A DNA stretch of 64,000 nucleotides from the NCBI GenBank assembly GCA_049967415.1, contig JBMFSS010000002.1:87717-151716 (forward strand). The letters run 5' to 3'. The notes beneath the pieces are model-generated. The model ran no database searches and was not told the DNA's origin. It was given only the letters and a program-made list of their open reading frames with translations. The position numbers and the translations under genes are program-made. This document shows, one piece after another, positions 6,332-57,096 of the stretch (position 1 is the stretch's first letter; every line of letters begins with the position of its first letter). This DNA comes from Candidatus Limnocylindrales bacterium. Lineage in GTDB: Bacteria > Chloroflexota > Limnocylindria > Limnocylindrales > CSP1-4.

Positions 6332-6992
6332 CGCTTCCCTGCCCGGGCGCCTCGCCCAGCCGCCACTCCTCGCCCAGCCGCCCCTTCGTGGAGGCCACTC
6401 CCACCCTCCTCGGGTCCCGCGCCAGGGCCCCACGAAGGGCCCGCGCGAGGGCCTTGAAGGCCGCCTCGGCCACGTGGTGGTCGTTGGCCCCCGCCGCCTC
6501 CAGGTGGAGGGTGATTGCCGCCTCCCGCGCAAATGACTCGAGCGCGTGTGGGATCAGCTGGGTGGAGAGCGCCCCCACCCGCTCGCCGCGGAAAGCCACC
6601 CGCACCACGGCATAGGGCCGGCCGGAGCAGTCAACGGCCGCTTCCGCCAGCGCCTCATCCATTGGAACGCGCGCCTCGCCAAAGCGCTCGATCCCGACTC
6701 CATCACCGACGGCCTCTCGGACGGCGCGACCGAGGGTCAGTGCAACGTCCTCCACGCTGTGGTGCTCATCGATCTCCAGGTCGCCGGTGGCTGTGATCGC
6801 GAGATCGAAAAGCGCATGGTGCGCAAGGGCCGTCAGGAGGTGGTCGTAGAAGCCGACGCCGGTGGCGATCTGCGCCATCCCGGTTCCGTCGAGGTCCAGA
6901 ACGACCCGGACGTCGGTCTCGCGGGTGGTGCGACGCACCTCCGCACGGCGCCCGCGAGGACCGGCCCCGGGGGTTGCCGAAGCCGGGTTCAC
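6321..6992 (-). CDS. hisB: Imidazoleglycerol-phosphate dehydratase
   Basis: 223 aa; RRAEVRRTTRETDVRVVLDLDG...HH..E..H motifs of IGPD. The start codon overlaps the hisC stop. Confidence 0.9.
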   Translation of the reverse strand: MNPASATPGAGPRGRRAEVRRTTRETDVRVVLDLDGTGMAQIATGVGFYDHLLTALAHHALFDLAITATGDLEIDEHHSVEDVALTLGRAVREAVGDGVGIERFGEARVPMDEALAEAAVDCSGRPYAVVRVAFRGERVGALSTQLIPHALESFAREAAITLHLEAAGANDHHVAEAAFKALARALRGALARDPRRVGVASTKGRLGEEWRLGEAPGQGSDAL

Positions 6993-15046: not shown

Positions 15047-15862
15047 TCAGGGCAGGGCAGGAGCAGCGGTTGCCACGGCGCGGTTGGCGGTGCTGGCCAA
15101 CGGCGCCGTCAGGCGGGCTGCGGCGATCAGCTCGTCAACTACCTCGTCGAACGAATGGATCCCCGCCGCTCGCGGGGCCGCGAGCAGCCATTCGGCGGCC
15201 GCGATCGCCCCCGCCGCGTAGGCCGATCGGTCGCGCGCGGTCAATCGCAGCTCGAACGTCTCGCCCGGCGCGTCGAACCCAACCAGGTGCATCCCGGGAG
15301 CCCACCCCGCGCGCACAGCGACCACTTCGAGCTCGTCGGTTCCCGGCGGGCCACCCCGCCCGGGCTCGGCCCGGCGACGCTTGACGGGATGCGCGGCAAG
15401 GATCCGGCGTGCGAGCTCGAGTGCCGTCCCAGAGGGCCGATCGGCTTTCCCCCTCCGGTGCCATTCGACGACGTAGGGGTCGTAGTCGGGAAGAAACCCG
15501 AGCATTTGCGTGGCGCCCTCAGCGAGGCGAGCCAGGACGTTGATGCCGGGGCTGAAGTTGCTGGCCGCCACCGCGCTGGCGCCATGCTGGTCGAGCAGGG
15601 CGGTCAACTCGGAGGGGGTGACCGTCCAGGCGGTGGTGCCAATGACGAAGCGCCGGCATCCGCCCGCCAGGGCCGAGGCGACGTTGGGCAGGACCGCGGC
15701 ACCACGGGAGAACTCAAAAGCCACCTCGACCGTGGCGAAGGCGCCGGGTGGATGCGAAGTCCGCGGCCGTCCAAGGACGCCGCATACCTCGGCCCCGCGC
15801 CCAGCGAGGGCATCCGCCACGGCCCTGCCCATCGGCCCATCCCCCAGTACGATCGCGCGCAT
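15047..15862 (-). CDS. dapB: 4-hydroxy-tetrahydrodipicolinate reductase
   Basis: The start MRAIVLGDGPMGRAV (Rossmann GxxGxxG) is preceded by GAGGAGGA. EWHRRGKADRPSGTA is the DapB signature (E.HH..K.D.PSGTA). Confidence 0.88.
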   Translation of the reverse strand: MRAIVLGDGPMGRAVADALAGRGAEVCGVLGRPRTSHPPGAFATVEVAFEFSRGAAVLPNVASALAGGCRRFVIGTTAWTVTPSELTALLDQHGASAVAASNFSPGINVLARLAEGATQMLGFLPDYDPYVVEWHRRGKADRPSGTALELARRILAAHPVKRRRAEPGRGGPPGTDELEVVAVRAGWAPGMHLVGFDAPGETFELRLTARDRSAYAAGAIAAAEWLLAAPRAAGIHSFDEVVDELIAAARLTAPLASTANRAVATAAPALP

Positions 15863-15919
15863 TTCGCCGTCCTCCTCGCGGAGGGGCCTGGAGCGGAGGT
15901 CCGATGGTCCGGACACACG

Positions 15920-15952
15920 AAAAAACCGCGGACCAAGCGACTGGTTCCGCGG
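15920..15952 (-). terminator. Intrinsic-terminator-like hairpin plus U-tract in the dapB 5' leader (possible attenuator or expression platform)
   Basis: On the minus-strand transcript, CCGCGGAACCAgucgcuUGGUCCGCGG is followed by UUUUUU, about 55 nt upstream of the dapB ATG. Confidence 0.5.
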
Positions 15953-16529
15953 CCTTCCGGGACCTCCGTGCCTGGAGGCCCCGTTCGTCGTCTGACGCGA
16001 AGCCCCCTAGGCCCGTGCCTCCCGGCAGGGCCGCCAGAGCTTCGCCTTCAGTCCGACGGTGTACATGACAATCGAACTATACGTTGGCTTGGGGACGGCC
16101 GTCAACGTCTGGCGTGGGATGTGTGAACGGCCAGCGATTCTGCGGCTGCTCCAGGCTGCGGCGGCGGCCCGGGCGTCAGGGAGGCCACCAGCCAGTGCAT
16201 GTGCAGCCCGCCCACCCGGTGCAACCGTACTCGCCACGATCGCTTCAGGTGCGCGAGACAGGCGGCATCCTCGGGCGAGCGCGCTGGTGTGTATAGAAAA
16301 AGGGCAGGAAAGGCAGCACGGTCGCTCCTTGCAGCGGTAGCGGCCAACCTCGTCGCCGACTACGTGCCCGGCGTCGAGGACCGCCGGCCGGCGTGGCCGC
16401 TCGGCCCGTTCCCCAAGTCGGCACGGCGAACAAACCCCCGCTGGCGAACGGCTACCGCAGGCGCGCCGCCTTCCGTTCAGGCCGTGCCGTGTGGGAGCGC
16501 ATCTCCGGCTGCAGCTCGATATCCCAGGG

Positions 16530-17771
16530 CTACGGAAGGTCGGGCTCGGGAGCGGAGTCACCCTGGAGCGCTGTCAGAATCGCCCCGTGCAGCCACCCGT
16601 TGGAAGCGACGATGGTCGCGGTGTCGAGCCGGCGGCGCCCGCCGAAATCAGTGAGCCGTCCACCCGCCTCTTCCACCAGCACCGAAGGTGCCGCCAGGTC
16701 CCAGGGATGGATCCCGACCTCGATCATTGCCTCGGCCGCCCCCTCGGCGAGGAGCGCGTAGCCCCAGAAGTCGCCGAAACCCCGATCCCGCCATACCCTC
16801 GCGACGAGATCCGCAAAGCCCGGCGCCCACCCGGTCCGCAGGACCTCAAATGGGGAGCCGTAGAGCAACTGCGCCTGACTGAGCGACCCGATCCTTGAGA
16901 CTCCCATCCGCGTGGCGGTGCCCGGGCCGTTCCGCTGCCAACGAAAGGTCCACGCCCCGCCACCCCGCCACGCGAACCAGCGCTGGTGCAGCGCAGGCGC
17001 CGAGAGGACCCCCACCTGCACCTCTCCATCTCGCTCGACGGCCAGGAGTGTCGCGAAGATCGGCACCCCGCGGACGTAGTTGTGCGTCCCGTCGATGGGG
17101 TCGATGTACCAGCGCGTGTCGGCCGTCCTAGCCTCCGACCCGTACTCCTCGCCGACCAGGCCGTGACCGGGATACATGTGCTGGATCTGCTCCCGGAGCA
17201 GTGCCTCGATCGCCCGATCGACCTGGGTGACCAGGGTGCGATCGGGCTTGGCGGTGATCTCGAGGTCGCGCTGGAAGTGGCTCAGGGCGATCGCATCCGC
17301 CTTGTCGCAGCCGCCCAAGGCGAATGAGAGCCAGTCTCGCAGCTCAGACTCGGTGCCGCGCCGCAGGGTGGCGCTCCACTCGGCTCCGCAGGCGGTCGCG
17401 TCGAAGGCCTCCACTCGGAAGGGGTTTGGGGCCCGCGCATCGTCGTCCATCCCTGTTACCAGCGCCCGCAGCAGGCCGCGCTCGAGCGTGTCATCGCGGA
17501 AAGCCACCGGGCCCTGCCAACCGCACACCACCCTCGCTCCCGCCTGCCTGACGGAAGAGAACAGCGCATCGGCCTTCGCGCATGCAGCGGCAATGGCCCT
17601 CCGGTCGGGCAACGCGGGGCATCCCGCGGTCAGCCACGGCCACTGCCTCGGCCACCTGGAGAGCGGCCGAGAGCGGCGTCCAGCACGGTCCCCATGTTGT
17701 GCGTCACCAGCCTCCGTACGCGAATCCCTGCCTGAATCGCTCCGGGCCGTTCCCGCGGATGTCGATGTCAA
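16530..17771 (-). CDS. hisN: Inositol-monophosphatase-family protein, likely histidinol-phosphate phosphatase (HisN-type), with an unassigned ~120-aa N-terminal extension
   Basis: IMPase motifs WYIDPIDGTHNY and HPWDLAAPSVLVEEAGG (WD.AAG) are present. Actinobacterial HisN belongs to this family. The first ~120 aa have no recognisable features and the true start is uncertain. Confidence 0.65.
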   Translation of the reverse strand: MTSTSAGTARSDSGRDSRTEAGDAQHGDRAGRRSRPLSRWPRQWPWLTAGCPALPDRRAIAAACAKADALFSSVRQAGARVVCGWQGPVAFRDDTLERGLLRALVTGMDDDARAPNPFRVEAFDATACGAEWSATLRRGTESELRDWLSFALGGCDKADAIALSHFQRDLEITAKPDRTLVTQVDRAIEALLREQIQHMYPGHGLVGEEYGSEARTADTRWYIDPIDGTHNYVRGVPIFATLLAVERDGEVQVGVLSAPALHQRWFAWRGGGAWTFRWQRNGPGTATRMGVSRIGSLSQAQLLYGSPFEVLRTGWAPGFADLVARVWRDRGFGDFWGYALLAEGAAEAMIEVGIHPWDLAAPSVLVEEAGGRLTDFGGRRRLDTATIVASNGWLHGAILTALQGDSAPEPDLP

Positions 17772-18891: not shown

Positions 18892-21291
18892 GTGTGCGAA
18901 CGATCGGATCGGGTCAACCGGCCGATTGTCCGACCGGCCACCGGTCCCCACACTGCCAAGCGAGAGCGGGACAGGATCGCGCACGGAGTACGTCATATGC
19001 CGCGCCGCGGATGGCGGGCCGACGACTCGCAGGGAGCCGCCGGTACCAGCGACCCTCGCCGCGACTTCTGGTCGTCGCGCGCGATCGCCGACGTGGTGCT
19101 GGAACACCTGAGCGACGCGGTGTTCGCCACTGACCCAGCAAACCGCGTGACGCTCTGGGGCCCCTCGGCGGAGCGGCTGTTCGGGTACTCCCGGGATGAG
19201 GCGTTGGGCCGGCCATTCGGCGAGCTGCTCCCCTATCGCATGGACGCCGAGGGCGACGAGGACGCCTTCATCGCGGCGCTCCGGGCCGGGCAGACCTGGC
19301 GTGGCTCGGGCAGCGTGCGCCTCCGCGACGGCACCGAGCGCTGGATCGAGTCGGTGGTGCGGCCCATCCTCGAGGACGGGCAGCTGCTCGGGAGCGTCTC
19401 GGTGAGCCGGGACATGACCGCCCAGCGCGCGGCCGCGCAGCAGCTCCACGACCAGGAGCGCTTCCTCGGCGCCGTGCTCGAGCTGATGGGCACCATCGTC
19501 AGTGTGTTGGACGCCCAGGGTCGCATCATGCGCCTCAACCGCGCGGCCCAGGAGGTGAGCGGGCGCACCCTCGCCGAGCTCGTGGGGCGACCCGTCTGGG
19601 AGGTGCTCGTCCCGCCTGCTGAGGCGGCGGCCGTGCGGGCCAGGTTCGCCCGCCTAGCCGCCGGTGAGGCGCCCGGCACCTCCGAGAACCACTGGGTCAG
19701 CGCCTCCGGCGAGGAGCGCCTCATCCGCTGGTCGAACACCTGCCTCACCGACGCGACCGGGGCCGTGACCCACGTGATCGGGGCAGGGATCGACATCACC
19801 GACGCGCGCCGCACCCGCGATGCCCTCGACGGCATCGAGGCGGTGGGACGACTGCTGGCCAGCAGCGGTCCCACGGAGGCCGCTCTCGACGCCGTGGTGG
19901 AGCGCCTGGGCACCCTGATGGGCTATCGGTACATGGCCCTCATCCTCCGCGATGGGGAGCGCTGGCGGCTCGGGGCGCAGCGCGGGTATGGGTCCCTACC
20001 GCCCTATTTCGAGCCCGGGCGCGGGGTCATCGGGCGCGTCATCCGCACCGGGGTCCCCGCCTTCGTGGCCGACGTGCTGGCCGATCCCGACTATGTGGCG
20101 GACGATGCGCGGGTGCGCAGCGAACTGTGCGTGCCGTTGCGGGCCGAGGGCGCCACGCTCGGCGTGCTCGACATCGAAGCCCTCCCGGAGGCGCCCCTCA
20201 CCGAGAGCGACCTGCGCCTGGCGGCCGCGGTGGCGGACCGCCTCGCTGCCGCCCTGCGCCTCGGACACGAACAGCTCGCCCTGCGCGAGCGGGTCCGTCT
20301 GTTCGGCGCCCTCACCGCGTTTGCGCGCCAAGCCGGGGAGGTCGGGGACCCCGAGCAGCTGTGGCCTGCTCTGACCGCTGCCGCGGCCTCGGTCATGGAC
20401 GCGGACCGCGTCTCCCTCACCACGCTGGATCGGAGCAGCGGGCAGTACGTACTGCGCGCGCTGGTCGGTGCGCCCGACGCGCTGGTGGGAACCGGGGTGA
20501 CCCCTGGCCAGGGCGCCGCTGGGCGCGCGATCGCGGAAGGTACCCCGATTCTCCTCGAGGTGCCGGTACAGCACCGCTGCCCCGACCTCGGGCTCCTCAC
20601 TGGGCCCGCCGAGGCCCTGGCGGTGGCCGCGGTGCCCCTGCTGCGCGAGGGCACGGTGCTCGGTGCGCTGGTGTTCGCCCGGTCTGCGGTGCGCGGCTTC
20701 AGCTCCCTCGAGCAGGAGGTGGCCGCGCTCCTCGGCGCGCAGGCTGCCCTCGCGGTGGCCAACGCCCACCTGCTCGCGGCGGTCTCCGAGCTCGCCATCC
20801 ACGATCCGCTGACCGGCCTCTACAACCGGCGACACTTCGACGCCGCGTTCGAGCTGGCGGTGGCGCGCTGGCGGCGGGACCGCGGGCGGTCGCCCCTCGC
20901 CGCGGTGATGTTCGATCTGGATCACTTCGGTGACTTCAACCGGGCGCACGGGCATCCGGTGGGCGACGAGGCGCTGCGCCGGTTCGCCGGGGTGCTGCGC
21001 GAACGGGTGCGCTCGTCGGACCTGGTGGCCCGCTACGGAGGTGAGGAGTTCGTGGTGGTGCTCGAGGACTGCGACCGGGACAGTGCGCGGGCCATCGCCG
21101 AGGCCATCCGGGCGACCTTCGAAGCGCGCCCCATTCCCGGTCCGGAGGGCGCCACCCTGCACGCAACCGTGTCCGCCGGCTGCGCCGTGCTGAACCCCGC
21201 CGAGCCCACCGCGGAAGCCCTCATCCGAGCCGCGGACGAGGGGCTCTTTATGGCCAAACGGGCGGGGCGCAACCGGGTGGTCGCCGTCTGA
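18892..21291 (+). CDS. Multidomain sensor diguanylate cyclase (PAS-PAS-GAF-GAF-GGDEF)
   Basis: Two PAS-like segments (...FATDPANRVTLWGPSAERLFGY..., ...LDAQGRIMRLNRAAQEVSG...), GAF-like segments, and a C-terminal GGDEF domain (RYGGEEFVVVLED, HDPLTGLYNRRHFD). An alternative start at M36 (18997) is possible. Confidence 0.85.
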   Translation: MCERSDRVNRPIVRPATGPHTAKRERDRIAHGVRHMPRRGWRADDSQGAAGTSDPRRDFWSSRAIADVVLEHLSDAVFATDPANRVTLWGPSAERLFGYSRDEALGRPFGELLPYRMDAEGDEDAFIAALRAGQTWRGSGSVRLRDGTERWIESVVRPILEDGQLLGSVSVSRDMTAQRAAAQQLHDQERFLGAVLELMGTIVSVLDAQGRIMRLNRAAQEVSGRTLAELVGRPVWEVLVPPAEAAAVRARFARLAAGEAPGTSENHWVSASGEERLIRWSNTCLTDATGAVTHVIGAGIDITDARRTRDALDGIEAVGRLLASSGPTEAALDAVVERLGTLMGYRYMALILRDGERWRLGAQRGYGSLPPYFEPGRGVIGRVIRTGVPAFVADVLADPDYVADDARVRSELCVPLRAEGATLGVLDIEALPEAPLTESDLRLAAAVADRLAAALRLGHEQLALRERVRLFGALTAFARQAGEVGDPEQLWPALTAAAASVMDADRVSLTTLDRSSGQYVLRALVGAPDALVGTGVTPGQGAAGRAIAEGTPILLEVPVQHRCPDLGLLTGPAEALAVAAVPLLREGTVLGALVFARSAVRGFSSLEQEVAALLGAQAALAVANAHLLAAVSELAIHDPLTGLYNRRHFDAAFELAVARWRRDRGRSPLAAVMFDLDHFGDFNRAHGHPVGDEALRRFAGVLRERVRSSDLVARYGGEEFVVVLEDCDRDSARAIAEAIRATFEARPIPGPEGATLHATVSAGCAVLNPAEPTAEALIRAADEGLFMAKRAGRNRVVAV

Positions 21292-33536: not shown

Positions 33537-33670
33537 CTTGAGCCTCACTGCTGCTGGGGTTGCCCGTTGCGGCCCTCATGGTCCCACACTCGGGGGCCTC
33601 CCGCAGTCGTCGCGGTACCGCCCGGTCCGCGGTCGCCGGGCGGGCGTATTCTTTTCGGTGGGAGGCGCCC

Positions 33671-53614: not shown

Positions 53615-55093
53615 ATGCGGATCGCGATGGTGAGCTCCGAGTGTGAGCCGTTTGCCAAGACCGGCGGGTTGGCCGACGTGGTAGATGCCCTGGCCCGGGC
53701 GCTGGGGGAGATGGGCCACCAGGTGGACGTCTACCTGCCGCGCTACCGGGGCCTGGAGGCTCCCGGGCCTGTCACCCGGACCACGGTTTTCGTTCCGGCG
53801 TCGGGGGGGCCGGGAACATCCTTCGCAGACGTCCTCTCCGCCCGGGCCGACGGCTACCGCCTCCGGCTGGTCGACCACCCGTACAGCTACGACCGGGCCG
53901 GTCTCTACGGCGAGGCCGGCTCGGACTACCCGGACAACGGAGCACGCTTCGCGCTGCTGGGCCAGGTGGCGCTGGAGACGATCCGGGCCGAAGGGGGCGG
54001 GGTCTCGGTCCTGCACGGGCACGACTGGCAGTCCGGCCCGGCGGTGCTGCTGCGCGATCACCGGTACGGCAGCGATCCGCTGCTCGCGGGGATGGCCACC
54101 CTGGTCACGTGCCACAACCTCGCCTACCACGGCTGGGTCCCGCGCGAACGGGCAGCCGATCTGGGACTGCCGCCCAGCGTTGGACGCCCCGATGGCGTGG
54201 ACCTGCTGCGCGAGGCGGTCGTGGCGGCTGACATGGTGAACACGGTCAGCCCGACCTACGCGCTGGAGTCAAGGACGCCCGAGTACGGCGCGGGGCTGGA
54301 CGACGTGCTGCGGGGACGGGGGGACCGGTATGTCGGGATCCTGAACGGGATCGACCGCCGGCTCTGGGACCCGGCTTCCGACCCGGCGCTGCCCAGCCGG
54401 TACTCGGCCCGGGACCTGGACGGCAAGCGGGCGTGCAAGGCCGAGCTGTGCTCCCGGCTGGGGATCGACGCCCGGCCGGACGACCGGAGCGGGCGAGGTG
54501 CCCCGCTGTTCGGGATGGTGGGGCGGCTCGACCCGCAGAAGGGGTTCGACCTGCTGACCGGAGCCGCCGAAGCGATGGTGGAGGCGGGCGGCCGCCTGGT
54601 GATCCTGGGCACCGGTGACGAGCGGCTGGTGGCGGGACTGCGGGAGACGGCGTTGCGCCACCCGGGCCGGGTCGCCGTCCTGGAGCGCTTCGACCGGGAT
54701 GAGGCGCGCCGCGTCTACGCGGCCAGTGACCTGCTCCTGATGCCCTCCCGGTTCGAGCCGTGCGGGCAGAGCCAGATGATCGCGATGCGCTACGGCACCA
54801 TCCCCGTGGTCCGGGCAACCGGCGGGCTGGCCGATACCGTGCGCGACGCGGATGCCGATCCGGCCGACGGCGACGGGTTCGTCTTCGGACCGCCGGCCGC
54901 CAGCGCCCTGGTGGACGCGGCGACGCGGGCGATGGCCGCCTACCGGGACCCGGGCCGCTGGCAGGCGCTGATGCGCCGGGCCATGGCGCGGGACTTCTCC
55001 TGGGCGGCCTCCGCACCGCGGTACCTGGACGCTTACCGGCGGGCGCTCGAGATCCGGCAGGCGGCCCCCGGGGGCGCGGCGCCCCGCTTCTGA
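53615..55093 (+). CDS. glgA: Glycogen synthase (GT5, ADP/UDP-glucose type)
   Basis: MRIAMVSSECEPFAKTGGLADVV (KTGGL motif), ...HCHDWQ-like HGHDWQS, C-terminal PSRFEPCGQSQM. Confidence 0.92.
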   Translation: MRIAMVSSECEPFAKTGGLADVVDALARALGEMGHQVDVYLPRYRGLEAPGPVTRTTVFVPASGGPGTSFADVLSARADGYRLRLVDHPYSYDRAGLYGEAGSDYPDNGARFALLGQVALETIRAEGGGVSVLHGHDWQSGPAVLLRDHRYGSDPLLAGMATLVTCHNLAYHGWVPRERAADLGLPPSVGRPDGVDLLREAVVAADMVNTVSPTYALESRTPEYGAGLDDVLRGRGDRYVGILNGIDRRLWDPASDPALPSRYSARDLDGKRACKAELCSRLGIDARPDDRSGRGAPLFGMVGRLDPQKGFDLLTGAAEAMVEAGGRLVILGTGDERLVAGLRETALRHPGRVAVLERFDRDEARRVYAASDLLLMPSRFEPCGQSQMIAMRYGTIPVVRATGGLADTVRDADADPADGDGFVFGPPAASALVDAATRAMAAYRDPGRWQALMRRAMARDFSWAASAPRYLDAYRRALEIRQAAPGGAAPRF

Positions 55094-55128
55094 GCGGGCC
55101 CGCAGCCCCGCGCGCTACCATCGGCCGC

Positions 55129-57096
55129 ATGCTGTTCGACTTCTCGACCGTCACTGCCGACTCGGTCGCGGCGGATACCGACGCGGGCCTTGCGCAGGCC
55201 GACGCCCTTGTCGAGGACGTGGTGCCACGTGGTGGCGCCACGTTCAGAGACACCATGCTGCCGCTTGACCAGGCCCTGGATCGTGTGCAGGTGGCATACG
55301 GCCAGGGCGCGTTCATGGCCCGGGTGCATCCGGACGCCGCGGTTCGTGCTGCCGGCCAGCGTTCAGAGGAGCGGCTTGCCAAGTGGCGCGTCGCGCTGCT
55401 CTTCCGGGCAGACCTCTACCGGGCCATCCGCTCCTATGCCGCAACCGCCGAGGGGCAGGCGCTCGCCGGGGAGCGGTTGCGCCTGGTCGAGCACTGGCTG
55501 CGCGACTTCCGGCGTGCCGGGCAGGAACTGCCCGCGCCCGCCCGGGACGAGCTCGAGCGGTTGCGCGCGCGCCTGGTCGAGCTGGAGGTGGCTTTCCAGC
55601 GCAATGTCGACGAGTTTCAGGACGGGCTGGAGCTGACGCGCGAGGAGCTCGCCGGGCTGCCCGAATCGTACGTGGATCGGCTGCCGGCCGGGACCCGGCC
55701 GGGAACCTGGAGAGTCGGGCTCGAATACCCCAGTGTCTTCCCCTTCCTGGATCAGTCGGAACGGCGCGATCTCCGCGAGCAGCTGGAGTTCAAGCTCTTC
55801 AACCGCGCCGCCACCGTCAACCGGCCGGTCATTGCGGAGGCGCTGGAGATCCGGAAGCGGATCGCCGCGCTGTTCGGCCTGCCCTCGTGGGCGCACTACG
55901 CGCTCGAGGTCAAGATGGCCCGGGACCCGGAGGCGGTCCAGCGCTTCTACGAGCAGCTGGTGCCGCCCCTCCAGTCCAAGGCGCGTGACGAGATCGCGCG
56001 TCTCGGCCGGCTGCTGGAGGCCGGGACCGGGGATCCGGTGCTGCGCTCGTGGGACTGGCGGTACTACGACAACCAGATCCGACGCACGGAGTTCGGGCTG
56101 GACCAGAACGTGGTCGCGGAGTACCTGCCCCTGGAACGCGTCATGGAGGGCCTGCTCGACCTGACCGGCGAGGTGTTCGGGCTGGAGTACCAGCGGATCG
56201 ATCCGGCGCTGGCCTGGCACCCCGACGTGGCGCTGTACGAGATCCACGACCGTGCCACGGGCACCCGCATCGCGCGCTTCTACGCCGACCTCTTCCCGCG
56301 CGAAGGCAAGTTCGGGCATGCCGCCGTCTTCCAGCTCGTTTCCGGCCACCGCCGACCCGACGGCTCGTACGTAGAACCTTCCTGTGCGATCGTGGCCAAC
56401 CTGACCCGGCCGTCGGTCGATCAGCCGTCGCTGCTCCGGCATGACGAGGTGGTGACGCTCTTCCACGAGTTCGGCCACGTGCTCCACCACTCCCTGTCGC
56501 GGACCGAGTTCGTGCGTTTCTCGGGGACCGAGACGGAGCCGGATTTCGTGGAGGCCCCCAGCCAGATCATGGAGCATTGGGCCTGGGACGCATCGGTCCT
56601 GCGCCGCTTCGCGCGGCACTATCGAACCGGCGAGCCCATGCCGGAGGCGCTGGTCGAGCAGCTCGTGCGCGCCCGGGACCTGAACGTCGGGATCCGGATG
56701 CTTCGGCAGGTCTCCCTGGGCCTGCTCGACATGGGTTTCCACGACACCGCGCCAGAGCGCGACCTGGACGCCATCAACCGGGAGTCCTGGTCGGTCATCG
56801 GGCTCCCGTACCACGAGGGCACGTTCTACGCGGGCGGCTTCGAGCACCTCTTCGGGGGCTACGACGCCGGCTACTACGGGTATCTCTGGTCCAAGGTCTA
56901 CGGAGACGACATGTTCGGGCGGTTCCGGGCAGCAGGCGTGACGAACCCGGAGGTGGGGGCAGCCTACCGGCGCGAGATCCTGGAATCGGGCGGATCCCGG
57001 GATGCCGCGGAGATGCTGCGCGCCTTCCTGGGCCGCGAGCCGTCGAACGCCACCTTCCTGGAGCTGCTGGGGATCGAGCCGGGCCCGCCCGCCTGA
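55129..57096 (+). CDS. M3-family zinc metallopeptidase (oligopeptidase/Dcp-like)
   Basis: TLFHEFGHVLHH (HEXXH) and the downstream E. Starts at MLFDFSTVTADS. Confidence 0.88.
   Translation: MLFDFSTVTADSVAADTDAGLAQADALVEDVVPRGGATFRDTMLPLDQALDRVQVAYGQGAFMARVHPDAAVRAAGQRSEERLAKWRVALLFRADLYRAIRSYAATAEGQALAGERLRLVEHWLRDFRRAGQELPAPARDELERLRARLVELEVAFQRNVDEFQDGLELTREELAGLPESYVDRLPAGTRPGTWRVGLEYPSVFPFLDQSERRDLREQLEFKLFNRAATVNRPVIAEALEIRKRIAALFGLPSWAHYALEVKMARDPEAVQRFYEQLVPPLQSKARDEIARLGRLLEAGTGDPVLRSWDWRYYDNQIRRTEFGLDQNVVAEYLPLERVMEGLLDLTGEVFGLEYQRIDPALAWHPDVALYEIHDRATGTRIARFYADLFPREGKFGHAAVFQLVSGHRRPDGSYVEPSCAIVANLTRPSVDQPSLLRHDEVVTLFHEFGHVLHHSLSRTEFVRFSGTETEPDFVEAPSQIMEHWAWDASVLRRFARHYRTGEPMPEALVEQLVRARDLNVGIRMLRQVSLGLLDMGFHDTAPERDLDAINRESWSVIGLPYHEGTFYAGGFEHLFGGYDAGYYGYLWSKVYGDDMFGRFRAAGVTNPEVGAAYRREILESGGSRDAAEMLRAFLGREPSNATFLELLGIEPGPPA

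Follow-up and report, generated by a model that had tools for sequence, protein, structure and literature searches.

Control of lysine biosynthesis in bacteria is usually ascribed to the L-box riboswitch or to protein regulators. The L box (RF00168) is a ligand-binding aptamer of about 180 nucleotides (nt) that is organized around a five-helix junction. The classical attenuators of enterobacteria (trpL, hisL, thrL, leuL, pheL and ilvL) consist of a short upstream open reading frame (uORF) with cognate codons, an intrinsic terminator and mutually exclusive hairpins that are chosen by ribosome position. For lysine, a tandem-Lys leader peptide reportedly attenuates the α-aminoadipate (AAA) lysine cluster of Thermus thermophilus, in work said to have been published by Tsubouchi et al. 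in J Biol Chem in 2005. Here, a leader element upstream of dapB is described from a 64,000-nt stretch of Candidatus Limnocylindrales bacterium DNA (contig JBMFSS010000002.1), hereafter the window. The element occupies part of the gap at 15863–16529, shares the cognate-codon uORF and the intrinsic terminator of the classical attenuators, is predicted to form alternative hairpins and is probably a lysine-specific, ribosome-mediated leader-peptide transcription attenuator of the dapB-dapA-acyltransferase-lysA operon. The sense strand of dapB is the minus strand, and all leader elements are read on that strand.

The nearest described designs appear, by comparison of their layouts, to be two attenuators of Actinobacteria. 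In Corynebacterium glutamicum ilvBNC, transcription starts one nucleotide from the leader-peptide start codon without a ribosome-binding site, and the model contains three hairpins that function as an anti-antiterminator, an antiterminator and a terminator (PMC11857589). In Mycobacterium tuberculosis ilvB1, a Rho-independent terminator follows a uORF that is translated and contains regulatory codons (PMC13236596). Both attenuators belong to high-GC hosts, as does the dapB leader (G+C content of 71.7% in the window), but they sense branched-chain amino acids and are unrelated to it in sequence. A third design, the polycysteine leaderless small open reading frames of mycobacteria (the 'Cys ribulon'), stalls ribosomes at cognate codons, acts on translation and is reused at several operons (10.1101/834739). 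The dapB leader differs from these reading frames in its strong intrinsic terminator; it also contains a hairpin predicted to sequester the Shine–Dalgarno (SD) sequence.

Among 185,579 species genomes, those most closely related to the window were assembled from metagenomes and belong to the Chloroflexota class Limnocylindria; 36 of their loci encode DapB proteins of 50–80% identity. These 36 genome loci were fetched and combined with metagenome stretches that were found with a 22-nt degenerate core pattern. Counts of peptides and promoters use 124 non-redundant copies, the metagenome part of which comes from among the matches listed. The conserved unit spans about 150 nt and comprises a promoter, a uORF, a long hairpin (H1), a second hairpin (H2) and a terminator.

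The promoter is σ70-like and was located by a consensus scan. Its –35 box (TTGACG, 16105–16100) and –10 box (TATAGT, 16081–16076) are separated by 18 nt, and this was the one site found, versus 0.1 expected per region in shuffled sequences. The G+C content falls to 0.59 around 16050–16149. Among the 124 relatives, TTGACA/TTGCAT-like hexamers occupy the equivalent –35 place, and a TAnnnT-like –10 hexamer ends 4–11 nt before the ATG codon of the uORF, mostly at 6 or 9 nt. In the window, the –10 box lies 9 nt upstream of this ATG. Because such a distance leaves no room for an SD sequence, the uORF is likely to be leaderless or nearly leaderless, in contrast to the SD-led uORFs of the classical attenuators. 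An earlier note on this DNA had placed a possible promoter in an AT-rich patch (16040–16075). The position was about right, but the predicted promoter (16105–16076) abuts the patch, which corresponds to the beginning of the predicted transcript and of the uORF.

The uORF (16066–16007) contains 19 codons (MYTVGLKAKLWRPCREARA) followed by a TAG stop codon and was identified by in-frame reading of the aligned leaders, each of which contains the short reading frame. An in-frame ATG is found in 123 of the 124 relatives, compared with 18 and 7 in the other two frames, and ATG triplets upstream of the Lys cluster number 215 in the Lys frame versus 20 and 7. The N-termini of the peptides are not conserved, as illustrated by MYTVGLKAKLWRPCREARA in the window, MFVRMLAKPKSKRWRPCREARP in a second clade and MNRRTFSDESKKKLWRPCREARALGL, the commonest peptide in metagenomes, and the length differences between clades are multiples of three. 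The same earlier note had called the gap non-coding. This holds for long reading frames, as those of 81 residues (minus strand) and 93 residues (plus strand) gave no match in a Pfam search and a GC-frame plot of the gap showed no convincing coding signal, but it does not hold for the conserved 19-codon uORF.

The conserved feature of the N-terminal half is its lysine codons. In the window, AAG-GCG-AAG (Lys7 and Lys9, 16048–16040) forms the putative sensor. All 124 leader peptides contain two to four lysines, arranged as KxK, KxKxK, KK or KKK and encoded by 338 AAG and 2 AAA codons. The last Lys codon begins 8 nt before an invariant GCGGCCC sequence (region 2) in every leader, and for the first Lys codon this distance is 14 nt in 102 of 124 leaders. 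The codons between and before the lysines drift freely or synonymously (CCG/CCC, TCG/TCC and GCG/TCG/CAG). Lysine constitutes 11% of the leader-peptide residues but only 0.8% of 7606 residues in 13 sampled window proteins (for example, those encoded at 15050–15862, 18892–21288 and 54760–57093). Such a low lysine content may make the Lys-tRNA supply a sensitive signal in this organism. The downstream genes dapB, dapA and lysA belong to lysine biosynthesis and thus produce the amino acid that would be sensed.

The element accompanies dapB throughout the relatives. A blastn comparison detected about 150 nt (16067–15915) at 70–95% identity upstream of dapB in 35 of the 36 genome loci. The leader core is 90–95% identical even where DapB is only 50–60% identical. 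The remaining locus (L017) contains a divergent copy by inspection, bringing the uORF and terminator to 36 of 36. The 22-nt core pattern was found in at least 120 metagenome stretches, and about 115 of the 120 matches listed lie directly upstream of dapB, the start of which is located 140–200 nt downstream of the pattern wherever enough sequence follows among the matches listed. Six apparent exceptions contain a dapB-like N-terminus on truncated or chimeric contigs, and four pattern matches (L067, L077, L102 and L120) are chance occurrences inside unrelated sequence. The minimum-energy structure of the window and its 12 nearest sequences were used to build a covariance model, which matched the dapB leader in 98 of 100 sources searched.

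The presence of a dedicated promoter and terminator suggests that a discrete short transcript is produced, as would be expected of an independent small gene, and trans-acting attenuator RNA and peptide are known from rnTrpL/peTrpL in Sinorhizobium (PMC7298713, PMC7968998). The element could accordingly encode an RNA of about 150 nt or a 19-residue peptide that acts in trans; its position beside dapB would then be accidental, or the activity in trans would be an additional function of the terminated leader transcript. This explanation is improbable, given that the element has one copy per locus and that about 115 of the 120 matches listed share the strand of dapB and directly precede it. The N-terminal peptide sequence is moreover unconserved, and both the correspondence of Lys codons to a lysine operon and the methionine paralogue described below point to control in cis. 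A role in trans could coexist with control in cis.

The leader RNA (16075–15860) is predicted to form three consecutive hairpins and a small hairpin over the dapB SD sequence, with a fold z-score of –4.9. H1 (16058–15986, –48.7 kcal/mol) pairs the Lys-codon strand with the strand that follows the stop codon. Its apex forms a separate hairpin (16032–16010, GGCCCUGCC-GGGA-GGCA(C)GGGCC, –17.4 kcal/mol), which encloses region 2 (16034–16028, GCGGCCC, encoding W-R-P). H1 is followed by H2 (15982–15959, GGGGCCUCC-AGGCAC-GGAGGUCCC, –18.1 kcal/mol). The third hairpin is the intrinsic terminator (15954–15920), which begins with GGCCGC (region 3, 15954–15949). An earlier reading of a GC-rich hairpin at 15926–15952 followed by U6 is borne out, with the hairpin core (CCGCGGAACCAGUCGCUUGGUCCGCGG, 15952–15926) contained in a full stem at 15954–15925 and the U6 run located at 15925–15920. 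In a scan of the window for hairpins followed by T runs, this terminator had the lowest energy (–23.5 kcal/mol) of 18 candidates, most of which look spurious. The last position of the U run is separated from the dapB SD sequence by 45 nt and from the dapB ATG by 57 nt.

The predicted pairs are maintained by compensatory changes in 97 distinct rows of the covariance-model alignment. Standard pairs occupy 87.9% of the cells, compared with 80.1% in shuffles and 34–49% when the partners are slid, although the alignment was fitted to the model structure, which biases the pair counts in favour of that structure; the slid controls share this bias. Changes on both sides are found in 31 of 48 pairs (19.6 in shuffles) and in 299 cells (114 in shuffles), a count that none of 500 shuffles reached. 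Many compensatory changes are located in the outer helices of H1 (helices 1–5). The apex hairpin (helix 6) is paired in 96.9% of cells with one U-A to A-U swap, H2 (helix 8) is paired in 95.6% with double changes in six of eight pairs, and the terminator stem (helices 9–11) is conserved with covariation. A plain MAFFT alignment of all clades analysed with RNAalifold recovered the apex hairpin and the terminator only, because the clades cannot be aligned in H1.

In the C-terminal half of the uORF, UGG CGG CCC UGC CGG GAG GCA CGG GCC is near-invariant at the nucleotide level, including synonymous positions. In L028 and L031, a Cys-to-Ser replacement in the peptide goes together with the exchange of U-A for A-U in the apex hairpin, and the Trp residue is replaced by Leu, Gly, Arg, Gln, Glu or Met while the third-position G, which is part of GCGGCCC, is kept. 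Because synonymous sites are invariant and residue changes preserve base pairing, the constraint on this half of the uORF appears to act on the RNA rather than the peptide. These observations bear on a nascent-peptide sensor of the TnaC/SpeFL type, in which a small molecule would cause the C-terminal RPCREAR(A) to halt translation close to the stop codon, with the arrested ribosome exposing the antiterminator. The C-terminal half of the peptide is indeed conserved, and when a ribosome is placed at the stop codon, the folding model described below yields the antiterminator. Such a sensor is nevertheless very improbable, as the conservation is at the nucleotide level with residues changing where pairing is kept (Cys to Ser; Trp to Leu, Gly, Arg, Gln or Glu). 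It would also leave the universal Lys or Met codons unexplained, and the C-terminus differs in the methionine paralogue (RRAEDGV).

Two mutually exclusive pairings involve region 2. GCGGCCC(U) (16034–16027) is the complement of (A)GGGCCGC, with which the terminator 5′ arm begins, and is for this reason predicted to be the antiterminator. The resulting helix between regions 2 and 3 (2:3 helix) has six base pairs in the window (GGCCGC, –14.3 kcal/mol) and eight in most relatives (about –18.5 kcal/mol). Over eight base pairs, it is 98.4% paired in the 97 sequences, with three compensatory cells versus 0.3 in shuffles (GCGGUCC:GGACCGC in L034 and L116; GCGGCCU:AGGCCGC in L013). The complementarity is thus consistent with selection. 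Two other antiterminator candidates were rejected. UUCGCG:CGCGGA is not conserved across clades in a hand comparison, and a pairing of GGCUU after the stop codon with GGGCC is 92.8% paired, essentially without covariation.

Folding of window RNA of nt 1–128, which ends in the terminator loop, gives H1 (–48.7 kcal/mol) and H2 (–18.1 kcal/mol) with the terminator 5′ arm free. When nt 4–31 are masked as if the Lys7 codon occupied the ribosomal A site, the fold with the GCGGCC:GGCCGC helix becomes the minimum-energy structure (–57.7 kcal/mol). The apex and H2 sequences re-pair mutually in this fold; as separate hairpins they amount to about –36 kcal/mol. Constrained folds of the full-length RNA keep the terminator in every ribosome state, and the co-transcriptional analysis was hence performed on RNA truncated before the terminator 3′ arm, with a modelled ribosome footprint. 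In the 12 sequences closest to the window, the probability of the 2:3 helix is 0.00–0.15 in free RNA and 0.71–0.86 with the footprint at the first Lys codon. With the first-Lys mask, the probability is at least 0.65 in 31 of 35 sequences.

These pairings suggest a three-tier mechanism in which H1, via its apex, is proposed to serve as an anti-antiterminator. Transcription would start a few nucleotides before the AUG, and the leaderless 19-codon uORF would be translated as it emerges. With the ribosome absent or already released, the uORF region would fold as H1, and the apex would lock GCGGCCC. The terminator would then form and stop transcription at 15920, about 60 nt before dapB. When Lys-tRNA is limiting, a ribosome stalled at the first AAG would cover the H1 5′ strand with its leading edge just before GCGGCCC. 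H1 would be held open, and GCGGCCC could capture GGCCGC before the terminator 3′ arm is made, allowing read-through. When lysine is plentiful, the ribosome would finish and leave, H1 would re-form with its apex as the anti-antiterminator, and the terminator would fold. H2 may act as a pause or delay element, but this is speculation. The terminator would also halt read-through from the upstream gene, since the uORF in such transcripts has no ribosome-binding site. We infer the start site, the translation of the uORF, the stalling, the kinetics and the lysine response.

Several observations weigh against this mechanism, in addition to the alignment bias. The 2:3 helix is almost invariant, and its covariation comes from very few events and is statistically thin. 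At the last Lys codon, the ribosome covers region 2 and the probability of the 2:3 helix is at most 0.19 in the 12 sequences, so only the first Lys codon fits a simple steric model. A ribosome at the stop codon also gives the antiterminator in the clade of the window (probability of 0.69–0.85). Repression consequently needs rapid release and H1 refolding, which must fit into roughly 90 nt of remaining polymerase travel, an assumption. In other clades, the probability in free RNA reaches 0.85, and the contrast between free and stalled states is clear mainly in the clade of the window. When the terminator is complete, its fold again has the lowest energy, also under the Lys7 mask, and read-through must therefore be kinetic, as it is in the classical attenuators. 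Finally, the organism is known from metagenome-assembled genomes only.

The proposed mechanism departs from the described systems in its anatomy. In the dapB leader, lysine would be the sensed amino acid, and the antiterminator strand forms part of the uORF itself, on the downstream side of the sensor codons, where it is locked by an extra apex hairpin. The three tiers (anti-antiterminator, antiterminator and terminator) distinguish the leader from the classical attenuators, and it has no sequence or covariance-model similarity to the Trp, His, Thr, Leu and Phe leader families of Rfam. The M. tuberculosis ilvB1 model has the antiterminator masked by a ribosome at the stop codon; by contrast, the modelled stop footprint leaves the antiterminator of the dapB leader exposed.

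The scaffold is also found with other sensor codons. The covariance model detected a second match (27.8 bits; 6685–6844, minus strand) in L091, a metagenome contig whose dapB leader lies 3.1 kb further downstream. This copy contains a TTGACG-17-TATAGC promoter, a short open reading frame (MNHTCVSWNMCMRWRPRRAEDGV) with Met-Cys-Met at the sensor position, the CGC UGG CGG CCC module, an H2-like hairpin and a U7 terminator, and it folds into the architecture of the dapB leader. It is followed on its 3′ side by an OsmC-like gene, a pyridoxal phosphate (PLP) enzyme of Cys/Met metabolism and an α/β hydrolase. For the PLP enzyme, homologues carry the name O-acetylhomoserine (thiol)-lyase (MetY) in their sources, and the hydrolase is read as a putative MetX. 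Three further contigs, which were obtained through close MetY homologues, contain the same scaffold directly upstream of metY-metX in three of three cases (L157, about 2230–2395; L158, about 2225–2386; L159, about 2232–2387), which brings the Limnocylindria contigs with the Met-type leader to four. AUG UGU AUG is invariant in all three, and their peptides contain HDMCMRWRP, WSMCMRWRP and NMCMPWRP. The C-terminus of the Met-type peptide, RRAEDGV, is unlike that of the dapB type. In L159, the frame upstream of AUG UGU AUG lacks a start codon (about 2215–2300), and a promoter-like site lies further upstream. The uORF of L159 would begin at the sensor codons (MCMPWRPRRAEDDA), and this copy could represent a variant that is leadered or decayed.

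The sensor codons differ between the pathways, being Lys codons for dapB-lysA and Met/Cys codons for metY-metX. Because the shared scaffold swaps its sensor codons with the downstream pathway, codon sensing by the ribosome is favoured, and the paralogue argues against a ligand-binding RNA or a peptide that acts through its sequence, with which it is hard to reconcile. As in the 'Cys ribulon', one leaderless design is reused, here for lysine and methionine/cysteine operons.

The paralogue also bears on a metabolite-binding riboswitch, which would sense lysine or a pathway intermediate with the terminator as its expression platform and the short reading frame as incidental. The RNA is structured, conserved and near-invariant even at synonymous sites, and it precedes lysine genes, which are frequent riboswitch targets. 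The earlier note had suggested an attenuator or a riboswitch. However, a search of the whole window against Rfam at the gathering threshold returned no match to any family, the lysine riboswitch, the T-box leader and other cis-regulatory families included. At E ≤ 10 with permissive filters, the region 15700–16700 matched only miRNA, snoRNA and Xoo2 models with E values of 2 or more, which is noise. Within the limits of a covariance-model search, this excludes the lysine riboswitch. The L box likewise controls dap/lys genes via a terminator in the 5′ leader but differs in anatomy. The dapB leader folds into a simple succession of hairpins and lacks a multi-helix junction. Neighbouring codons drift, whereas the Lys codons are kept, as is an in-frame ATG whose distance from the –10 box is fixed, and the invariant stretch is explained by its double duty in the apex hairpin and the antiterminator. 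The methionine paralogue retains the scaffold and exchanges only the codons (Met-Cys-Met), which indicates that specificity follows codons rather than an aptamer. A riboswitch is therefore highly improbable. Of the two suggestions, attenuation is strongly supported by the conserved promoter, the leaderless Lys-codon uORF, the predicted alternative pairings and the terminator before a lysine operon. The view that the absence of a structured-RNA model match would speak against such a leader proves too narrow, since known families indeed give no match and yet the regulatory leader is real.

The element is absent from Rfam 15, and the searchable literature contains no report of it or of any leader-peptide attenuator for dapB or lysA. 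The dapB leader is thus probably a newly recognized instance of textbook leader-peptide attenuation that is unreported as far as the literature can be searched. A Lys-codon leader peptide before an operon of the diaminopimelate pathway is an uncommon solution. The Thermus thermophilus leader mentioned above is said to control the AAA pathway rather than the diaminopimelate pathway in another phylum and is presumably unrelated in sequence, although the sequences were not compared. To our knowledge, essentially nothing has been described about gene regulation in Limnocylindria, which are abundant soil and freshwater Chloroflexota known almost exclusively from metagenomes, and the leader provides a concrete regulatory element for this class. 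The pairing of Lys and Met/Cys versions on one scaffold amounts to a natural codon-swap experiment and illustrates how attenuators diversify. High-GC hosts could also be equipped with it as a compact, protein-free part that responds to amino acids. In annotation, a recurrent 'empty' stretch before dapB is accounted for by the leader, and gene callers and Rfam both miss such leaders.

A more far-reaching interpretation is that one modular leaderless scaffold with plug-in codons was copied to many amino-acid operons with exchange of the sensor codons, together with a possible nascent-peptide layer (RPCREAR tail) or translational layer (SD hairpin). Its parts may be the promoter, the AUG, a variable N-terminus, the sensor codons, a fixed xWRP antiterminator module, H2 and the terminator, and versions other than Lys and Met/Cys may exist. 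This interpretation is tentative and rather doubtful; if true, it would imply a regulon of combined transcriptional and translational ribosome sensing in a major uncultured soil lineage. The dapB leader element is single-copy per locus. A filter-off covariance-model search of the window for further scaffold copies gave none above noise, and a strict regular-expression search of all loci revealed no new paralogues.

The translational layer is suggested by the hairpin over the dapB SD sequence (15887–15866, GCCCCUCC / GGAGG..GGC), in which the SD sequence GGAGG (15875–15871) is paired with CCCCUCC. Among 36 related leaders, 27 have minimum-energy folds in which 75% or more of the SD sequence is paired. 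By manual reading, a conserved GGACCUCC box (15901–15894) is complementary to both the dapB SD sequence and the H2 3′ arm. The SD hairpin and this box may form a second, translational control layer on read-through transcripts. No pairing was found between the uORF and the dapB SD region.

The operon downstream of the leader contains four minus-strand genes, dapB (15862–15047; Pfam DapB_N/DapB_C), dapA (14989–13997; Pfam DHDPS), a hexapeptide acyltransferase gene (about 14000–13146; Pfam Hexapep) and lysA (13149–11803; Pfam Orn/DAP decarboxylase). The order dapB>dapA>lysA is kept in 43 of 49 related loci with enough flank. On its upstream side, the gap extends as described earlier, from the stop codon of an inositol-monophosphatase-family gene at 16530 (16530–17771, minus strand; family confirmed with Pfam) to the dapB ATG at 15862. 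The claim that such a gap is unusual in a compact genome is not well founded, as a crude gene call shows many gaps of 300–600 nt.

The terminator hairpin is located on the strand of the inositol-monophosphatase-family gene and downstream of it, and it might accordingly terminate that gene, with an unrelated dapB promoter further downstream. This possibility can scarcely be entertained. The hairpin lies about 580 nt past the stop codon of that gene with the leader promoter in between, and the interval from the terminator to dapB showed no promoter-like site. In addition, the upstream gene is syntenic in only one of 156 related loci (L116), whereas the element always accompanies dapB.

The attenuator reading leaves about 425 nt of the gap (16529–16106) outside the element as a spacer without conservation or excess structure. 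Comparison of the spacer with the 156 related loci by blastn and tblastx gave no significant similarity. Only marginal matches (E of 0.003 or weaker) were obtained, none of them at a position upstream of dapB, and the fold z-score was 0.03. A pseudogene or conserved element in the spacer is not supported by these comparisons and the z-score. The spacer is evidently lineage-specific, judging from the synteny of the inositol-monophosphatase-family gene in one related locus only. Within the spacer, a weak terminator-like site (16451–16438, minus strand; CCGTTCGCCAGCGG then GGGTTTGTTC) is located about 80 nt past the stop codon of the inositol-monophosphatase-family gene and may be the terminator of that gene itself. 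The open reading frame of the gene (16533–17771, minus strand) encodes 413 residues, of which the Pfam domain spans only residues 145–402; its listed TTG start may lie upstream of the true one, or an Arg/Ala-rich extension may be present at the N-terminus of the protein. In the 64-kb window, no other convincing attenuator-like terminator was found. A second fairly strong terminator-like hairpin is located at about 33610–33657 on the plus strand (CCGCCCGG...CCGGGCGG, –21.4 kcal/mol) and is followed by a T-rich run.

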